DNA of 64,000 bases from Escherichia coli. GTDB taxonomy: Bacteria; Pseudomonadota; Gammaproteobacteria; Enterobacterales; Enterobacteriaceae. How positions within the stretch are numbered: the first letter of the stretch is position 1; each line of letters begins with the position of its first letter. Positions 28,836 through 34,125 of the stretch are shown piece by piece. Below the pieces are notes generated by a model. The model did not search any database, was not told the origin of the DNA, and saw only the letters and a list, made by a program, of their open reading frames with translations. Position numbers and translations under genes: made by a program. Location of the stretch: NCBI RefSeq assembly GCF_030384885.1, contig NZ_CP128613.1; one strand, written 5' to 3'.

Positions 28836-30197
28836 TTACTTCTCCAGTTGGCGTAATATCTTATTAACTTTATCAAAAGTTTCCTGATATTCCGCTTCTT
28901 CCTGGCTATCGGCGACAATTCCACCGCCCGCAGAGCAGTATATTTGTCCGTTAATGGCAGTCAGCGTGCGGATAGTAATGCTGGTATCCATGTTGCCGCA
29001 AAAGCTCAAATAGCCAATGCTGCCGCACCAGGCATTGCGTCGCTGCGGTTCCAGTTCGTCGATAATTTCCATAGCCCGTACTTTCGGTGCTCCAGTTATT
29101 GAGCCACCAGGAAAAGCTGCGCGCAGCAGATCGCTGGTGTGTAACTGTTCTGGTAGTTGCGCCGTTATGGTGCTGACCAGATGATGCACGGCAGGGAAGG
29201 GTTCCACCACGAACAGCTCTGGTACTTTTACCGAACCTGCTACGGCAACACGACCGATATCATTACGCATTAAATCGACAATCATCAGATTTTCGGCACG
29301 ATCTTTCGCTGAGTTCGCCAGTTTTTCTGCTTGTTTGCTATCTTCCTGAGGATCGGGCAGGCGTGGTAGCGTGCCTTTAATCGGGCGGGTCTGGATTTCA
29401 CTATTATCACAAAGAATAAACCGCTCTGGCGAAAGGCTTAAAATCGCGCCCTGTTCAAGACGTAAAAAAGCGCTAAATGGCGCGCGGTTGGCCTGATTAA
29501 GCTGAAGGAATGCCTGCCATTCATCGCCAGAATAGGTCGCATGGAAACGCTGGGCGAGATTCACCTGATAGCAATCACCGCTGTGCAGATATTCCTGTAC
29601 CTGGCGAAATTTTTCGCCGTACAGCTCGCGGGTCATATTGGATTGCCAGTCGGAAGTGAGCGTGAAATCTTCCTGCGGCGAGAATTGCTGGCTTTCCAGC
29701 CAGGCCCGACGGGCATTGACATCATTATGACTCAGCAAAGAAACTGTTTGACGCTGGTGGTCGACAATGAGCGCCCAGTCGTAGATACCCACAGCCATAT
29801 CCGGCAGAACGATATCTTGCTGCGCAATTTCTGGCAGTGACTCAAAACGGCGGCCCAGATCGTAGCCAAACAACCCCAGCGCGCCGCCCTGAAATGGCAA
29901 ATCTTCGTTATGCGCTGGGCGAATGTCTGCGCGATCCAGCACCTGCTGGAGCACCTGTAGCGGGTCATCAGTGGTCGTTGTGCGTTTTTCGCTTTCACTA
30001 ACAACGGTTTCTTTACCGAAAGTGGTTAAAGTGCAAATCGGCTCGGCGACCACAATATCAAAGCGGCTATATGGATGATCGGCATAGCCGGAGTGTAAAA
30101 GCATCGCCCACGGCAGGTGACTTAAGCGGGAGAAATAAAATTCAGCGGCGTCCTGACGCCAGGGTAAAGTAATCACAGCGGGAGATAACGTCTTCAT
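28836..30197 (-). CDS. pabB: Aminodeoxychorismate synthase component I PabB
   Basis: 453-aa product MKTLSPAVITLPWRQDAAEFYFSRLSHLPWAMLLHSG... chorismate-binding enzyme fold; stop 3 nt before nudL start. Confidence 0.94.
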   Translation of the reverse strand: MKTLSPAVITLPWRQDAAEFYFSRLSHLPWAMLLHSGYADHPYSRFDIVVAEPICTLTTFGKETVVSESEKRTTTTDDPLQVLQQVLDRADIRPAHNEDLPFQGGALGLFGYDLGRRFESLPEIAQQDIVLPDMAVGIYDWALIVDHQRQTVSLLSHNDVNARRAWLESQQFSPQEDFTLTSDWQSNMTRELYGEKFRQVQEYLHSGDCYQVNLAQRFHATYSGDEWQAFLQLNQANRAPFSAFLRLEQGAILSLSPERFILCDNSEIQTRPIKGTLPRLPDPQEDSKQAEKLANSAKDRAENLMIVDLMRNDIGRVAVAGSVKVPELFVVEPFPAVHHLVSTITAQLPEQLHTSDLLRAAFPGGSITGAPKVRAMEIIDELEPQRRNAWCGSIGYLSFCGNMDTSITIRTLTAINGQIYCSAGGGIVADSQEEAEYQETFDKVNKILRQLEK

Positions 30198-30270
30198 CAG
30201 TCCTGACTCTACTGGCTATGTGCCGGGTAGCATGAAATAATTAGCGCCAACAATTTAGCAGGAGTTAACA

Positions 30271-30450
30271 ATGTTTGCAGGTTTACCTTCACTCACCCAT
30301 GAACAGCAGCAAAAAGCCGTCGAGCGGATCCAGGAACTGATGGCACAAGGGATGAGCAGCGGCCAGGCAATCGCGTTGGTGGCAGAAGAGCTGCGTGCCA
30401 ACCATTCCGGCGAGCGAATCGTGGCGCGTTTTGAGGATGAAGACGAGTAA
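30271..30450 (+). CDS. yoaH: UPF0181 small protein YoaH (59 aa)
   Basis: ATG ORF (below track threshold) giving [59 protein letters not shown]; GGAG RBS upstream; divergent from pabB. Confidence 0.85.
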
Positions 30451-30456
30451 CACAAA

Positions 30457-30909
30457 ATGATCCGTATCGATTTCGTCACGGATGACGCCCTGTATCTTGA
30501 TACGGATAGCCTCATCGGCTGGGATTTTTCCGGCATGAACTTACATCGTGCCATTTTTGACGGTATGTGCCTGGACGGCGCGCGGTTTAATCATGCGCAT
30601 CTGCGTAATATCAGTTTTATCAACGCGTCCCTGATTGGGGCCGACCTCTCGTCCAGCGCACTGATGTGTGCCTGGTTAAACAGCGCCGATCTGACCAATT
30701 GTAATTTTGCTCAGTCACGACCCATTGATGCTGATTTTAGGCATGCACGACTTTGTGGGGCAGATTTTACCGACACCGATTTAAGAGGTGCTAATTTTTC
30801 ATCGACACATCTTCAGAATGTTTGTTTTAACGGGGCGCATTATGACAAACGAACTGTCTGGCCCGCAGAGTTTTATCCAAGGATTAACGGGGCTGTGTTG
30901 GTTGATTGA
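30457..30909 (+). CDS. Pentapeptide-repeat protein (Qnr/MfpA/McbG-like beta-helix), identity not recognised at this locus
   Basis: 150-aa ORF; residues ~22-131 are ~22 tandem 5-residue units (WDFSG MNLHR AIFDG MCLDG ARFNH AHLRN ISFIN ASLIG ADLSS SALMC AWLNS ADLTN CNFAQ ...) with F/L at the central position; ATG lies 6 nt after the yoaH stop and in the same frame; no strong SD. Confidence 0.65.
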   Translation: MIRIDFVTDDALYLDTDSLIGWDFSGMNLHRAIFDGMCLDGARFNHAHLRNISFINASLIGADLSSSALMCAWLNSADLTNCNFAQSRPIDADFRHARLCGADFTDTDLRGANFSSTHLQNVCFNGAHYDKRTVWPAEFYPRINGAVLVD

Positions 30910-30998
30910 ATTTGGCGGGGTTTATGATGGCAAGAAAAAGACGCTTTTATGTGGTCAACAAAAGCGCCCTGGTCAATTTTTGCTGATAGAGAATTAAC

Positions 30999-31298
30999 TC
31001 AAACCAGTGCTTTGAGTTCTTCCTGCATGTACGACGAAAAGTATTCTGGGTTTTTAATCACAATACGTTCACCAGACTCCATTTTTTTTGCCCATCCCAC
31101 CATTTTTTCCGTGAATCCAGGATTCCAGCCTTCCTGATCGGCTCGCGCAGTAATATCGGCGGAACTGGCGGGTACACCCAGGTCATGCAAATATTTAAAT
31201 ATTCCCTTCGCCGTACTTTCATTCATAGAACTTGGTGTTGATGCTGATACATCCATGGCACCAATAAAATCCAGAGCTTTATCTATTACTGCAGGCAT
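30999..31298 (-). CDS. yoaC: DUF1889 protein YoaC
   Basis: 99-aa product MPAVIDKALDFIGAMDVSASTPSSMNESTAKGIFKYLHDLG... from internal Met of ORF 30999..31322. Confidence 0.8.
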   Translation of the reverse strand: MPAVIDKALDFIGAMDVSASTPSSMNESTAKGIFKYLHDLGVPASSADITARADQEGWNPGFTEKMVGWAKKMESGERIVIKNPEYFSSYMQEELKALV

Positions 31299-31738
31299 AT
31301 TCTTTTCCTTAAAATTAACCATGTGAACAATAAGGCTATATATGACCTTAAATTGCGTCCAATATCAAAGGGATTATAACGATATCTCATTAGTTAACCT
31401 ATTGACATTCAGGTGTTTTAAAGGTAGCAGGTCATAGTCTGTTATGTAGTGATGTACCGCAAATTAACTGTAAGTAGAAACGCTTCAGCCCAGGTTTTCA
31501 AGCAAGAAAGATAGCAAGAAGAAAACCAAAGTAGGCTAATCAGGGAGTTAGCATAATAATTTGATTTTGCTGATTAATATCAATTGTGTATAAATAACAA
31601 CGAATCGATAAAAATGAAGAATAAATGACCTGAAGGGGTATTACACATCTAAAACACTGACCGTTTTATTCAAAGTCGGCCAGTGTTTTCGATAAATTAT
31701 TGTGCGACTTTTGCCGTGACAGAATTCTTTTTCTGAAA

Positions 31739-32083
31739 TTAAACCGCCGCGATAATCTTAATTTCAACCTTGTACTTCGGGTTCATCAAACCCGCTTGTA
31801 CCGTGCAGCGCACCGGCGCATGACCCGCGACAACCCAGGCATCCCACGCTTTATTCATCGCCGCGAAGTCGTTTTTATCAGCCAGGAAAATGGTGGCATC
31901 CAGAATGCTCGATTTATTGCTGCCCTGTTTTTCCAGCACGGCGTCAATCTGCGCCAGCGTGTTGGCGGTTTGCTCAAAGGCATTGGCGTCGAGGTTTTCC
32001 GGTACACCAGTGTAGTAGAGCGTGTTGTTGTGGATTACTACATCAGACCAGCGGGCTTCAGCATCGATACGAACGATAGTCAT
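31739..32083 (-). CDS. yoaB: RidA/YjgF-family protein YoaB
   Basis: 114-aa product MTIVRIDAEARWSDVVIHNNTLYYTGVPENLDANAFEQ...; start at internal Met of ORF 31739..32131. Confidence 0.85.
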   Translation of the reverse strand: MTIVRIDAEARWSDVVIHNNTLYYTGVPENLDANAFEQTANTLAQIDAVLEKQGSNKSSILDATIFLADKNDFAAMNKAWDAWVVAGHAPVRCTVQAGLMNPKYKVEIKIIAAV

Positions 32084-32214
32084 CATTTTGTCCTCATTAT
32101 CCTTCCATTTTCGTGCTGCAAAGACTGCCACAATGTGAGGTCGCCGTCACCACTTCAACTGGCGAAAGCGCCCTCATCCTGACATAATCCCTGTTCAAAT
32201 CAACAGGGGGTAGT

Positions 32215-34125
32215 GTGACGGACGATTTTGCACCAGACGGTCAGCTGGCGAAAGCGATACCAGGCTTTAAGCCGCGAGAACCACAGCGTCAGATGGCGGT
32301 AGCCGTCACCCAGGCAATAGAAACAAGCCAGCCGCTGGTGGTGGAGGCCGGAACCGGTACGGGCAAAACCTACGCTTACCTGGCCCCTGCGCTGCGGGCG
32401 AAAAAGAAAGTCATTATCTCGACCGGCTCAAAAGCGTTGCAGGATCAGCTCTACAGCCGCGATTTGCCAACGGTCTCAAAGGCGTTGAAATACACGGGCA
32501 ACGTGGCGTTGCTGAAAGGGCGCTCAAACTATCTCTGCCTCGAACGACTGGAACAGCAGGCGCTGGCGGGCGGCGATTTGCCGGTACAAATCTTAAGCGA
32601 TGTGATCCTGCTGCGCTCCTGGTCTAATCAAACAGTCGATGGTGATATCAGCACCTGCGTCAGCGTGGCGGAAGATTCACAGGCGTGGCCGCTGGTCACC
32701 AGCACCAACGACAACTGCCTTGGCAGCGACTGCCCGATGTATAAAGATTGCTTTGTGGTCAAAGCACGCAAAAAAGCGATGGACGCCGATGTGGTGGTGG
32801 TAAACCATCATCTCTTTCTGGCGGATATGGTGGTGAAAGAGAGTGGATTTGGCGAACTGATCCCGGAAGCTGACGTGATGATCTTCGACGAAGCCCACCA
32901 ACTGCCTGACATTGCCAGCCAGTATTTTGGTCAGTCACTCTCCAGTCGACAACTGCTCGACCTGGCAAAAGACATCACCATCGCCTACCGCACCGAATTA
33001 AAAGACACCCAGCAGTTACAAAAGTGCGCCGACCGCCTTGCCCAGAGCGCGCAGGATTTTCGCCTGCAATTAGGTGAGCCAGGTTATCGTGGCAACCTGC
33101 GCGAACTGTTAGCTAATCCGCAAATTCAGCGAGCATTTTTACTGCTCGATGACACCCTGGAACTTTGTTATGACGTGGCGAAACTGTCGCTGGGGCGTTC
33201 CGCCTTGCTGGATGCGGCATTTGAGCGCGCCACGTTGTATCGTACGCGGCTGAAACGGCTAAAAGAGATCAATCAGCCGGGCTACAGCTACTGGTATGAA
33301 TGCACTTCGCGCCATTTTACTCTGGCGCTCACGCCGCTTAGCGTGGCGGATAAATTCAAAGAATTAATGGCGCAAAAACCAGGTAGCTGGATCTTCACCT
33401 CAGCAACGCTGTCGGTGAACGACGATCTGCATCATTTCACCTCGCGGCTCGGGATAGAACACGCGGAGTCGTTGCTATTGCCAAGCCCCTTTGATTACAG
33501 CCGCCAGGCATTACTCTGTGTGCCGCGCAACCTGCCGCAAACCAATCAACCGGGTTCCGCTCGGCAGCTGGCGGCAATGCTGCGACCGATCATCGAAGCC
33601 AATAATGGTCGTTGTTTCATGCTTTGTACCTCGCACGCCATGATGCGCGATCTGGCCGAGCAGTTCCGCGCTACCATGACGCTTCCCGTGTTGTTGCAGG
33701 GGGAAACCAGCAAAGGCCAACTGCTACAGCAGTTTGTCAGTGCCGGTAATGCGCTGCTTGTGGCGACCAGCAGTTTCTGGGAGGGGGTGGACGTGCGTGG
33801 CGATACATTGTCACTGGTGATTATCGACAAGTTGCCGTTTACCTCCCCGGATGACCCGTTGTTAAAAGCGCGCATGGAAGATTGCCGTTTGCGCGGTGGT
33901 GACCCGTTCGATGAAGTACAACTGCCGGATGCGGTCATTACTCTCAAGCAGGGAGTAGGGCGACTGATTCGCGACGCCGACGATCGAGGGGTTTTGGTGA
34001 TTTGCGACAATCGGCTGGTGATGCGCCCTTACGGCGCGACGTTTCTCGCCAGTCTGCCGCCAGCGCCGCGCACCCGTGACATTGCCCGTGCGGTTCGTTT
34101 CCTTGCGATACCATCCTCCAGGTAA
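32215..34125 (+). CDS. yoaA: DinG-family ATP-dependent DNA helicase YoaA
   Basis: 636-aa product with Walker A (AGTGTGKT), DEAH box (FDEAHQL) and Fe-S Cys cluster; GTG start. Confidence 0.92.
   Translation: MTDDFAPDGQLAKAIPGFKPREPQRQMAVAVTQAIETSQPLVVEAGTGTGKTYAYLAPALRAKKKVIISTGSKALQDQLYSRDLPTVSKALKYTGNVALLKGRSNYLCLERLEQQALAGGDLPVQILSDVILLRSWSNQTVDGDISTCVSVAEDSQAWPLVTSTNDNCLGSDCPMYKDCFVVKARKKAMDADVVVVNHHLFLADMVVKESGFGELIPEADVMIFDEAHQLPDIASQYFGQSLSSRQLLDLAKDITIAYRTELKDTQQLQKCADRLAQSAQDFRLQLGEPGYRGNLRELLANPQIQRAFLLLDDTLELCYDVAKLSLGRSALLDAAFERATLYRTRLKRLKEINQPGYSYWYECTSRHFTLALTPLSVADKFKELMAQKPGSWIFTSATLSVNDDLHHFTSRLGIEHAESLLLPSPFDYSRQALLCVPRNLPQTNQPGSARQLAAMLRPIIEANNGRCFMLCTSHAMMRDLAEQFRATMTLPVLLQGETSKGQLLQQFVSAGNALLVATSSFWEGVDVRGDTLSLVIIDKLPFTSPDDPLLKARMEDCRLRGGDPFDEVQLPDAVITLKQGVGRLIRDADDRGVLVICDNRLVMRPYGATFLASLPPAPRTRDIARAVRFLAIPSSR

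Follow-up and report, generated by a model that had tools for sequence, protein, structure and literature searches.

The 440-bp gap between yoaC and yoaB in the Escherichia coli DNA analyzed here (31299-31738 of the window, that is, of the whole 64-kb stretch under analysis) is very probably a composite non-coding regulatory spacer, which comprises the 3' untranslated region (UTR) and terminator of yoaB, AT-rich upstream DNA, and the promoter and leader of yoaC. In the arrangement that we propose, the yoaB-proximal end would carry the 3' UTR together with a hairpin at which a single-gene yoaB mRNA terminates. Next would come ~200 bp of AT-rich, weakly constrained DNA, corresponding to the place at which, in the common E. 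coli allele, the LysR-type regulator YhaJ binds; another regulator of the LysR type, YeiE, also binds upstream of yoaC, at an unmapped position. The third part would be an activator-dependent yoaC core promoter with the extended -10 TGCTACCTT and a weak -35, possibly joined by a second promoter at a TATAAT, and the fourth would be a conserved yoaC leader of ~116 nt that ends in the Shine-Dalgarno sequence. This kind of element is already known, and the rare allele is the sole unusual feature of the spacer.

The gap has a GC content of 33% (0.334), ranging from 0.315 to 0.35 in 200-bp segments, compared with ~0.53 in the flanks. In the RefSeq annotation of the identical locus of E. coli 2013C-4282, yoaC occupies 30999-31298 (-) and yoaB 31739-32083 (-), with yoaH at 30271-30450 (+) and a pentapeptide-repeat gene at 30457-30909 (+); this annotation places no gene between yoaC and yoaB, and the curated K-12 record NC_000913.3 lists none in the orthologous spacer. 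Matches to Pfam families were DUF1889 for yoaC, Ribonuc_L-PSP for yoaB, and Pentapeptide and UPF0181 for the neighbors. A reading of the locus made earlier from the sequence only had described an AT-rich 440-bp gap without an assignable gene or a callable open reading frame (ORF), and both descriptions were borne out by this composition and annotation and by the ORFs of the gap, which are just 10-34 codons long and of which none is conserved. It had counted the gap in the least explained segment of the window; the elements that account for the gap are ordinary ones, namely the terminator of yoaB, the yoaC promoter with its leader, and upstream DNA to which regulators bind (table 1).

Table 1. 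Features of the yoaC-yoaB spacer, observed or predicted, in window coordinates
Feature	Position	Strand	Remark
yoaB 3' UTR	31694-31738	-	From the stop codon (31739-31741) to the hairpin; aligned to the K-12 mRNA end
yoaB terminator hairpin	31647-31693	-	Supported by inverted repeat, fold, covariation, and K-12 3' end
Exact H-NS high-affinity consensus tCGATAAATT, predicted site	31689-31698	+	Overlaps the hairpin base
Distal AT-rich region upstream of yoaC	31446-31646	.	59% identity to K-12; YhaJ peak in the common allele
Position aligned with the K-12 predicted YhaJ box TCAATTTTATCTATAA (yoaC strand)	31589-31603	-	Window reads TCGTTGTTATTTAT-A
Direct repeat AGCAAGAA...AGCAAGAA	31501-31520	+	Copies at 31501-31508 and 31513-31520
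Extended -10 TGC-TACCTT of the yoaC promoter	31421-31429	-	Upstream of the K-12-equivalent start site 31414
Perfect TATAAT, candidate second, more proximal yoaC promoter	31373-31378	-	Read from the sequence; no recognizable -35
yoaC 5' leader	31299-31414	-	116 nt, assuming the start site of K-12; Shine-Dalgarno AAGGA at 31306-31310
22-nt imperfect direct repeat, copy 1	31299-31320	+	Covers the yoaC Shine-Dalgarno region
22-nt imperfect direct repeat, copy 2	31724-31745	+	Overlaps the yoaB stop codon
22-codon ORF just past the hairpin	31580-31648	-	Open in 3/4 window-type alleles
34-codon upstream ORF overlapping the yoaC start	31286-31390	-	Open in 4/4 window-type alleles
33-codon frame			Open in related species; first codon ATA in the window

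The spacer aligned end to end with the yoaB-yoaC intergenic region of K-12 (NC_000913.3 1,893,712-1,894,132; 421 bp, GC 0.325), which has the same flanking genes in the same orientation and of which it is the orthologue. The hairpin, the extended -10 with its start-site context, the TATAAT, the leader, and TCGATAAATT are common to the two spacers, whereas the predicted YhaJ box of K-12 is only partly kept in the window and the -10 of the K-12 antisense promoter is not conserved there. Identity to K-12 was ~90% over the 147 bp adjacent to yoaC and 70% in the hairpin region, compared with 59% in the distal 200 bp (31446-31646), which also differ by 10- and 12-nt insertions/deletions. We took the four-fold degenerate sites of yoaC, 64% identical to K-12 (27/42), as a neutral yardstick; since the identity of the distal spacer is close to this value (59% vs 64%), the distal part is diverging at about the neutral rate and is seemingly unconstrained. 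Length variation among genomes, which the sequence-only reading had considered, was found (440 bp in the window, 421 bp in K-12, and 271 bp in Escherichia sp. MOD1-EC7003, in which the distal part is absent).

At the yoaB end, the inverted repeat has arms of 17 nt (31647-31663 and 31677-31693) that are 88% complementary and separated by 13 nt, with the core CACTGACCG/CGGCCAGTG, and an equally good inverted repeat arose in just 2 of 300 shuffles. On the yoaB strand, the minimum-energy fold contains a 13-bp stem, A4-CACUGGCCG...CGGUCAGUG-U4 (z = -3.3), in which 31655-31663 pair with 31677-31685 as the core and the flanking A4 and U4 of the RNA lie at 31689-31686 and 31654-31651. The 9-bp core has five G-C pairs and one G-U pair, the latter being the one mismatch, turned into a G-U on the yoaB strand. 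The hairpin lies 46-92 nt past the yoaB stop codon, and its UUUU is followed by AGAUGUGU. Among seven Escherichia alleles, three pairs showed compensatory double changes, and 82% of the hairpin cells were paired, compared with 28-44% in controls slid by 1-3 columns; with these seven sequences, the covariation score was matched by 8 of 500 shuffles.

Published K-12 RNA ends fall at the orthologous hairpin. A yoaB RNA 3' end was mapped by Term-seq in two conditions at 1893787(+), 4 nt after the hairpin (Adams 2021), and a full-length yoaB transcript was recorded by SMRT-Cappable-seq from 1893335 to 1893785 (Yan 2018), with the yoaB start site in the same place (1893335/6) in an independent map with 448 reads (Kim 2012, PMC3415461). 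The K-12 yoaB mRNA thus extends ~76 nt beyond the stop codon, a stretch that aligns with 31738-31653 of the window; the 3' ends from the two methods map to 31653-31655, and the Term-seq end, at 31653, falls inside the U-tract. The hairpin resembles intrinsic terminators in being a stable stem-loop that follows the yoaB stop codon and precedes UUUU, and its upstream A-tract gives it a symmetry similar to that of bidirectional terminators; it differs from intrinsic terminators in its large loop (13 nt) and short U-tract (4 U), the two properties because of which a generic promoter/terminator scan missed it. The K-12 hairpin has no U-tract, in contrast to the U4 of the window, and termination in K-12 may therefore not be classically intrinsic. 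By analogy with the K-12 3' ends, and with the fold and covariation found here, the identification of the inverted repeat as the yoaB terminator, which the sequence-only reading had made from its appearance, is supported.

At the opposite end, the yoaC start site of K-12 was mapped with 21 reads to 1892041 in NC_000913.2 (Kim 2012, PMC3415461), which corresponds to 1894017 in version 3 (an offset of +1,976 between the two versions). That position precedes the ATG by 116 nt, and its equivalent in the window is 31414. The TGC-TACCTT is 7 nt upstream of the equivalent position and is preceded by a weak -35, TACATA (3/6), at ~31443-31448; CTGCTACCTTTAAAA was kept in 6 of 7 Escherichia alleles. The leader is ~90% identical to K-12, compared with 64% at neutral sites, and its 3' ~80 nt are kept in Pseudocitrobacter and, in part, in Buttiauxella. 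In these two genera, yoaC stands in other contexts, and just these ~80 nt upstream of the ATG travel along with the gene. RNA structure in the leader was not significant (z = -0.7 and +0.5), and a consensus fold of nine sequences reached just -1.9 kcal/mol; it appears to be at the DNA or promoter level that the leader is so strongly conserved. The expectation that the yoaC-adjacent part holds the yoaC promoter and leader is supported by its ~90% conservation and by the K-12 start site 116 nt upstream of the gene.

Downstream of the mapped start site, the perfect TATAAT is a candidate for a second, and possibly the main, yoaC promoter. The surrounding GTTATAATCCCTTTGAT was kept in 6 of 7 Escherichia alleles, with ATGATAAT in E. 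whittamii and AAGAATCCCTTTGAT in Pseudocitrobacter. The generic promoter scan reported neither the extended -10 nor the TATAAT of yoaC. As the mapped start site rests on 21 reads from a single study, the invariant downstream TATAAT may be the main promoter.

Between these two ends lies the distal region, in which binding of the LysR-type regulator YhaJ is documented in other alleles. Measured from the yoaC 5' end, the YhaJ ChIP-seq peaks are centered at 305 bp in EHEC and at 283 bp in UPEC (Connolly 2019, PMC6765310); yoaC is a documented member of the YhaJ regulon (yqjF, yhaK, ybiJ, yhhW, and yoaC) with its peak in the spacer in EHEC and UPEC. The predicted YhaJ box TTATAGATAAAATTGA (PMC6765310 SI Tables S3/S4) is carried by K-12, EHEC, and UPEC; in K-12, it lies at 1893839-1893854, ~170 bp upstream of the yoaC start site, and it is degenerate, with two mismatches to TCAA-N5-TTGA. 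The box is only partly kept in the window allele, whose aligned sequence retains ~11 of its 16 positions. A search for TCAA-N5-TTGA with at most one mismatch found no site in the window or in any allele and was thus uninformative, and the two-mismatch candidates at 31605-31617 and 31580-31592 are expected by chance in AT-rich DNA. In K-12, yoaC is a YeiE-activated gene, and ChIP-exo showed the regulator bound upstream of the RNA polymerase at this gene (Gao 2018). The core promoter of yoaC likewise resembles activator-dependent promoters in having no good -35. At LysR-type-regulated promoters, the activator site is ~65 bp upstream of the start, instead of the ~170 bp found for YhaJ at yoaC; this position is unusually far for a LysR-type activator, and direct activation is therefore uncertain. 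The RNA ends and YeiE binding described above are K-12 data and YhaJ binding is from EHEC and UPEC, that is, from other alleles only; by analogy, we infer that the same elements work in the window allele.

The sequence-only reading had proposed that the gap might hold an unannotated small RNA or a very small protein, and neither proposal was sustained. That the distal spacer encodes a small RNA is extremely unlikely: although the gap is long, a promoter-like match on the yoaC strand (TTGATA-16-AATTAT, 31583-31556) sits in a 22-nt block that is invariant in four window-type alleles, and a weak antisense start site was mapped next to the hairpin in K-12 (12 reads; Kim 2012, PMC3415461), promoter-like matches occurred at the level of shuffles (2 vs 2.7), and the window has TGTTTT in place of TATTAT, the -10 of that K-12 antisense promoter. 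Moreover, no relevant Rfam match was obtained at E <= 10 when 29500-33500 was scanned, the distal folds were not significant (sense z = -1.8, antisense z = -1.5), and the distal part has diverged from K-12 at the neutral rate. The yoaB end is the sole K-12 Term-seq 3' end in the interval, and a promoter and terminator belonging to a small RNA itself were not found, the sole terminator-like hairpin in the spacer being that of yoaB. The candidates for a very small protein, of 22, 33, or 34 codons, were rejected after ORF enumeration, cross-allele comparison, and codon-position counts, and this reading is most improbable. Variable sites by codon position numbered 8/11/7 in the 33-codon frame, 4/5/9 in the 22-codon frame, and 10/5/6 in the 34-codon frame, with no clear third-position excess, and no ORF is conserved across alleles. 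The 33-codon frame has an ATA in place of a start codon in the window; the 22-codon ORF, open in three of the four window-type alleles, has no Shine-Dalgarno sequence and begins with AGG in the SCPM-O-B-8794 allele. The 34-codon ORF is open in the four window-type alleles and also, from a GTG start, in K-12, and a start codon at 31390, with AGG 8-10 nt upstream, is kept in all seven alleles; yet insertions/deletions break this frame in E. albertii and MOD1-EC7003. K-12 has different ORFs in its spacer, and its curated annotation lists none of them.

The base composition of the spacer has its context in a larger segment. The genes yoaB and yoaH converge at a distance of just 0-11 nt in Salmonella enterica, Klebsiella quasipneumoniae, and Enterobacter asburiae; therefore, the 1,288-bp segment 30451-31738 (GC 0.415 vs 0.529 in the flanks), which spans the pentapeptide gene, yoaC, and the spacer, is an Escherichia-specific insertion between them. 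The AT-richness of the spacer is explained by its place in this low-GC insertion. The yoaC homologue of Klebsiella pneumoniae is located elsewhere in the genome (orthologue table, Kim 2012, PMC3415461). When the complete insertion was searched against phages and plasmids, no phage matched, and the "plasmid" matches were mislabelled chromosomes or Klebsiella yoaC homologues. No decayed gene was seen either: a six-frame translation of the spacer shared just the Shine-Dalgarno/leader region with yoaC loci of other genera and with the rest of the window. The pentapeptide gene is intact beside the window allele, whereas ~10 codons are left in K-12 and N-terminal remnants in Escherichia sp. MOD1-EC7003 and in SCPM-O-B-8794; given these remnants, the intact gene is the older state, and the pentapeptide-repeat gene has been lost from most E. 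coli.

Two further explanations concern the AT-rich DNA. In one, the main role of the spacer would be H-NS nucleation and silencing on DNA that was acquired horizontally, with YhaJ, from its far-upstream site, and YeiE relieving the repression of yoaC; we consider this possible, if rather doubtful. The spacer, with a GC content of 0.33 inside a low-GC insertion, contains an exact match to tCGATAAATT, the high-affinity consensus of H-NS (Lang et al. 2007, PMC2094087), which is the sole copy in the 64-kb window and arises in 0.2% of spacer shuffles. The motif is kept across alleles that are otherwise diverged, being exact in K-12, E. albertii, and SCPM-O-B-8794 and having one mismatch in E. whittamii and E1V33; it is nevertheless single, as H-NS-type sites with at most two mismatches are neither clustered nor enriched in the spacer (2 observed vs 1.2 expected), and it overlaps both the terminator base and the weak K-12 antisense promoter, either of which could explain its conservation. 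A YhaJ site ~170 bp upstream of the start is a poor place for direct activation, and such a position would fit relief of H-NS silencing. Compared with acquired AT-rich DNA that H-NS silences, the locus shares a low-GC, lineage-specific insertion and an exact consensus site, but the insertion is very small (1.3 kb) and its one consensus site has no cluster of near matches. None of the papers searched ties yoaC to H-NS binding. Judged from the motif, H-NS binding at the spacer is plausible. The silencing reading is compatible with the composite-spacer explanation, which it refines. The other explanation starts from a 22-nt imperfect direct repeat whose copies, identical at 18 of 22 positions, stand exactly at the two ends of the spacer and enclose AT-rich DNA; such a repeat was reached by just 1 of 300 dinucleotide shuffles. 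The 425 bp between the copies would then be a discrete insertion into what was once a tight yoaB-yoaC junction, perhaps a non-autonomous element or else the scar of a recombination event. We regard this as very unlikely: the repeat is present in window-type alleles but cannot be recognized in K-12 or in E. albertii, a target-site duplication of 22 bp would be a long one, copy 2 is partly yoaB coding sequence while copy 1 is the conserved yoaC Shine-Dalgarno region, and no Escherichia genome examined has a yoaB-yoaC junction without the spacer. In addition, the spacer is single-copy in every genome searched and has no relative in phages, true plasmids, or the rest of the window. It is equally improbable that the 425-bp insertion brought a regulatory package made up of the yoaB terminator, an H-NS nucleation site, and far-upstream LysR-type sites that relieve yoaC silencing; if true, the locus would illustrate, on a small scale, how regulatory DNA can be gained in one piece. 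The short direct repeat AGCAAGAA, which the sequence-only reading had also singled out, coincides with a 12-nt insertion/deletion relative to K-12 and proved unexceptional, since 20% of dinucleotide shuffles hold an 8-mer repeated within 30 nt; Tandem Repeats Finder reported no tandem repeats for the spacer.

The composite regulatory spacer is thus present in the window in a rare form. A K-12-type spacer, at full length and at least 96% identity, was found in 5,357 of 5,426 complete E. coli genomes, whereas the window-type distal spacer occurs in three; these three carriers were isolated from human stool in the USA, Vietnam, and Thailand, and their flanking protein alleles differ. Strains with this allele include 2013C-4282, 2017-02-2CC, and RMDEC465. 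Among species-representative genomes, the arrangement seen in the window, with its pentapeptide gene, was that of E. whittamii and Escherichia sp. E1V33, and SCPM-O-B-8794, which is labelled E. coli, has a window-type spacer but just a remnant of the pentapeptide gene. Divergence from K-12 is limited to ~30451-31800 of the window, with flanking DNA 95-100% identical. Relative to E1V33, identity is 96-98% from the pentapeptide gene through the proximal spacer, and 91-92% in pabB and yoaA. These identities suggest either that an allele of a related Escherichia lineage replaced ~1.3 kb at this locus or that an old allele was retained here. The spacer looks unfamiliar because the window has the E. 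whittamii/E1V33-type version, which is rare in E. coli. Homology, the pattern of conservation, hairpin covariation, and the rarity of the allele were all observed in this analysis.

These results remove a false lead, in that each element of the spacer has published experimental support in the common allele (K-12, EHEC, or UPEC). For specialists, the apparent replacement of a 1.3-kb allele in a handful of E. coli strains, whose version is closer to other Escherichia species, may be a clean, if minor, example. The two alleles, which are ~40% apart where YhaJ binds in EHEC and UPEC, provide a natural comparison to see if any control of yoaC by YhaJ or H-NS persists despite this distance.

The convergent genes yoaB and yoaH are separated by only 0–11 nt in Salmonella, Klebsiella, and Enterobacter (loci L017, L018, and L019). 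In the window, positions 30451–31738 (1,288 bp, with a low GC of 0.415) comprise a pentapeptide-repeat gene, yoaC, and the 440-bp AT-rich spacer between yoaC and yoaB, and this segment is an Escherichia-specific insertion. Compared with K-12, a 1.35-kb stretch (30451–31800) showed 59–93% identity between flanks of 95–100%; compared with Escherichia sp. E1V33, the same stretch showed 96–98% identity between flanks of 91–92%. These sequence comparisons indicated a localized allele replacement. The allele carried by the window was found in only three of the 5,426 complete E. coli genomes, and the flanking protein alleles differed among the three. The spacer is bracketed exactly by two copies of an imperfect direct repeat, a level of repetition matched by only 1 of 300 shuffles; this repeat is missing in the K-12 allele.

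Features in and around the yoaC–yoaB spacer (window coordinates unless a locus is named).
Feature	Position	Strand	Remark
Pentapeptide-repeat gene, 150 aa	30457–30909; locus L002, 3631–3700	+	Start 6 nt past yoaH stop codon
Hairpin	30938–30970		Between convergent pentapeptide-repeat gene and yoaC
Direct repeat, 22 nt, imperfect (18/22)	31299–31320 and 31724–31745		Copies at yoaC Shine-Dalgarno and yoaB stop codon
Four-codon mini-ORF, ATG TCA AYA GRN TAA	31393–31407	-	MSIG or MSTG
Block TGATATTAATCAGCAAAATCAA	31562–31583	-	No change among four window-type alleles
Candidate H-NS high-affinity consensus, exact, TCGATAAATT	31689–31698	+	

The pentapeptide-repeat gene is intact in the window, in E. 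whittamii, and in Escherichia sp. E1V33. Only approximately 10 of its codons (IRIDFV...) are left in K-12, and N-terminal remnants were observed in MOD1-EC7003 and SCPM-O-B-8794; thus, the gene has been lost from most E. coli. Judging from RNA ends mapped at its K-12 orthologue, the hairpin downstream of this gene probably works in both directions: strong Term-seq 3′ ends have been reported there on both strands, at 1894457 (-) and 1894497/8 (+). Antisense to yoaC, K-12 additionally shows a region of Rho-dependent termination at 1894397 (-).

Within the spacer, all seven Escherichia alleles retain the mini-ORF, which opens 7 nt downstream of the inferred start site of yoaC; its retention may be a simple by-product of the conserved nucleotides around it. 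The H-NS motif, which is kept in K-12 and E. albertii, is the sole copy within the 64-kb window; a related sequence, TCGATAAAAA, lies at 31605–31614. The invariant block lies in DNA that is otherwise variable among window-type alleles (those typical of E. whittamii and E1V33). Its sequence includes a near-palindrome, TGAT-ATTA-ATCA, and a promoter-like match (TTGATA-16-AATTAT) overlaps it. The block might serve either as a binding site or as an upstream promoter particular to these alleles. In MOD1-EC7003, the spacer is 271 bp (locus L007, 2230–2500) and retains the yoaB terminator hairpin and the TATAAT/leader segment, with a diverged extended -10 region. Most of the distal AT-rich part is missing from this spacer, so at least one lineage can do without it.
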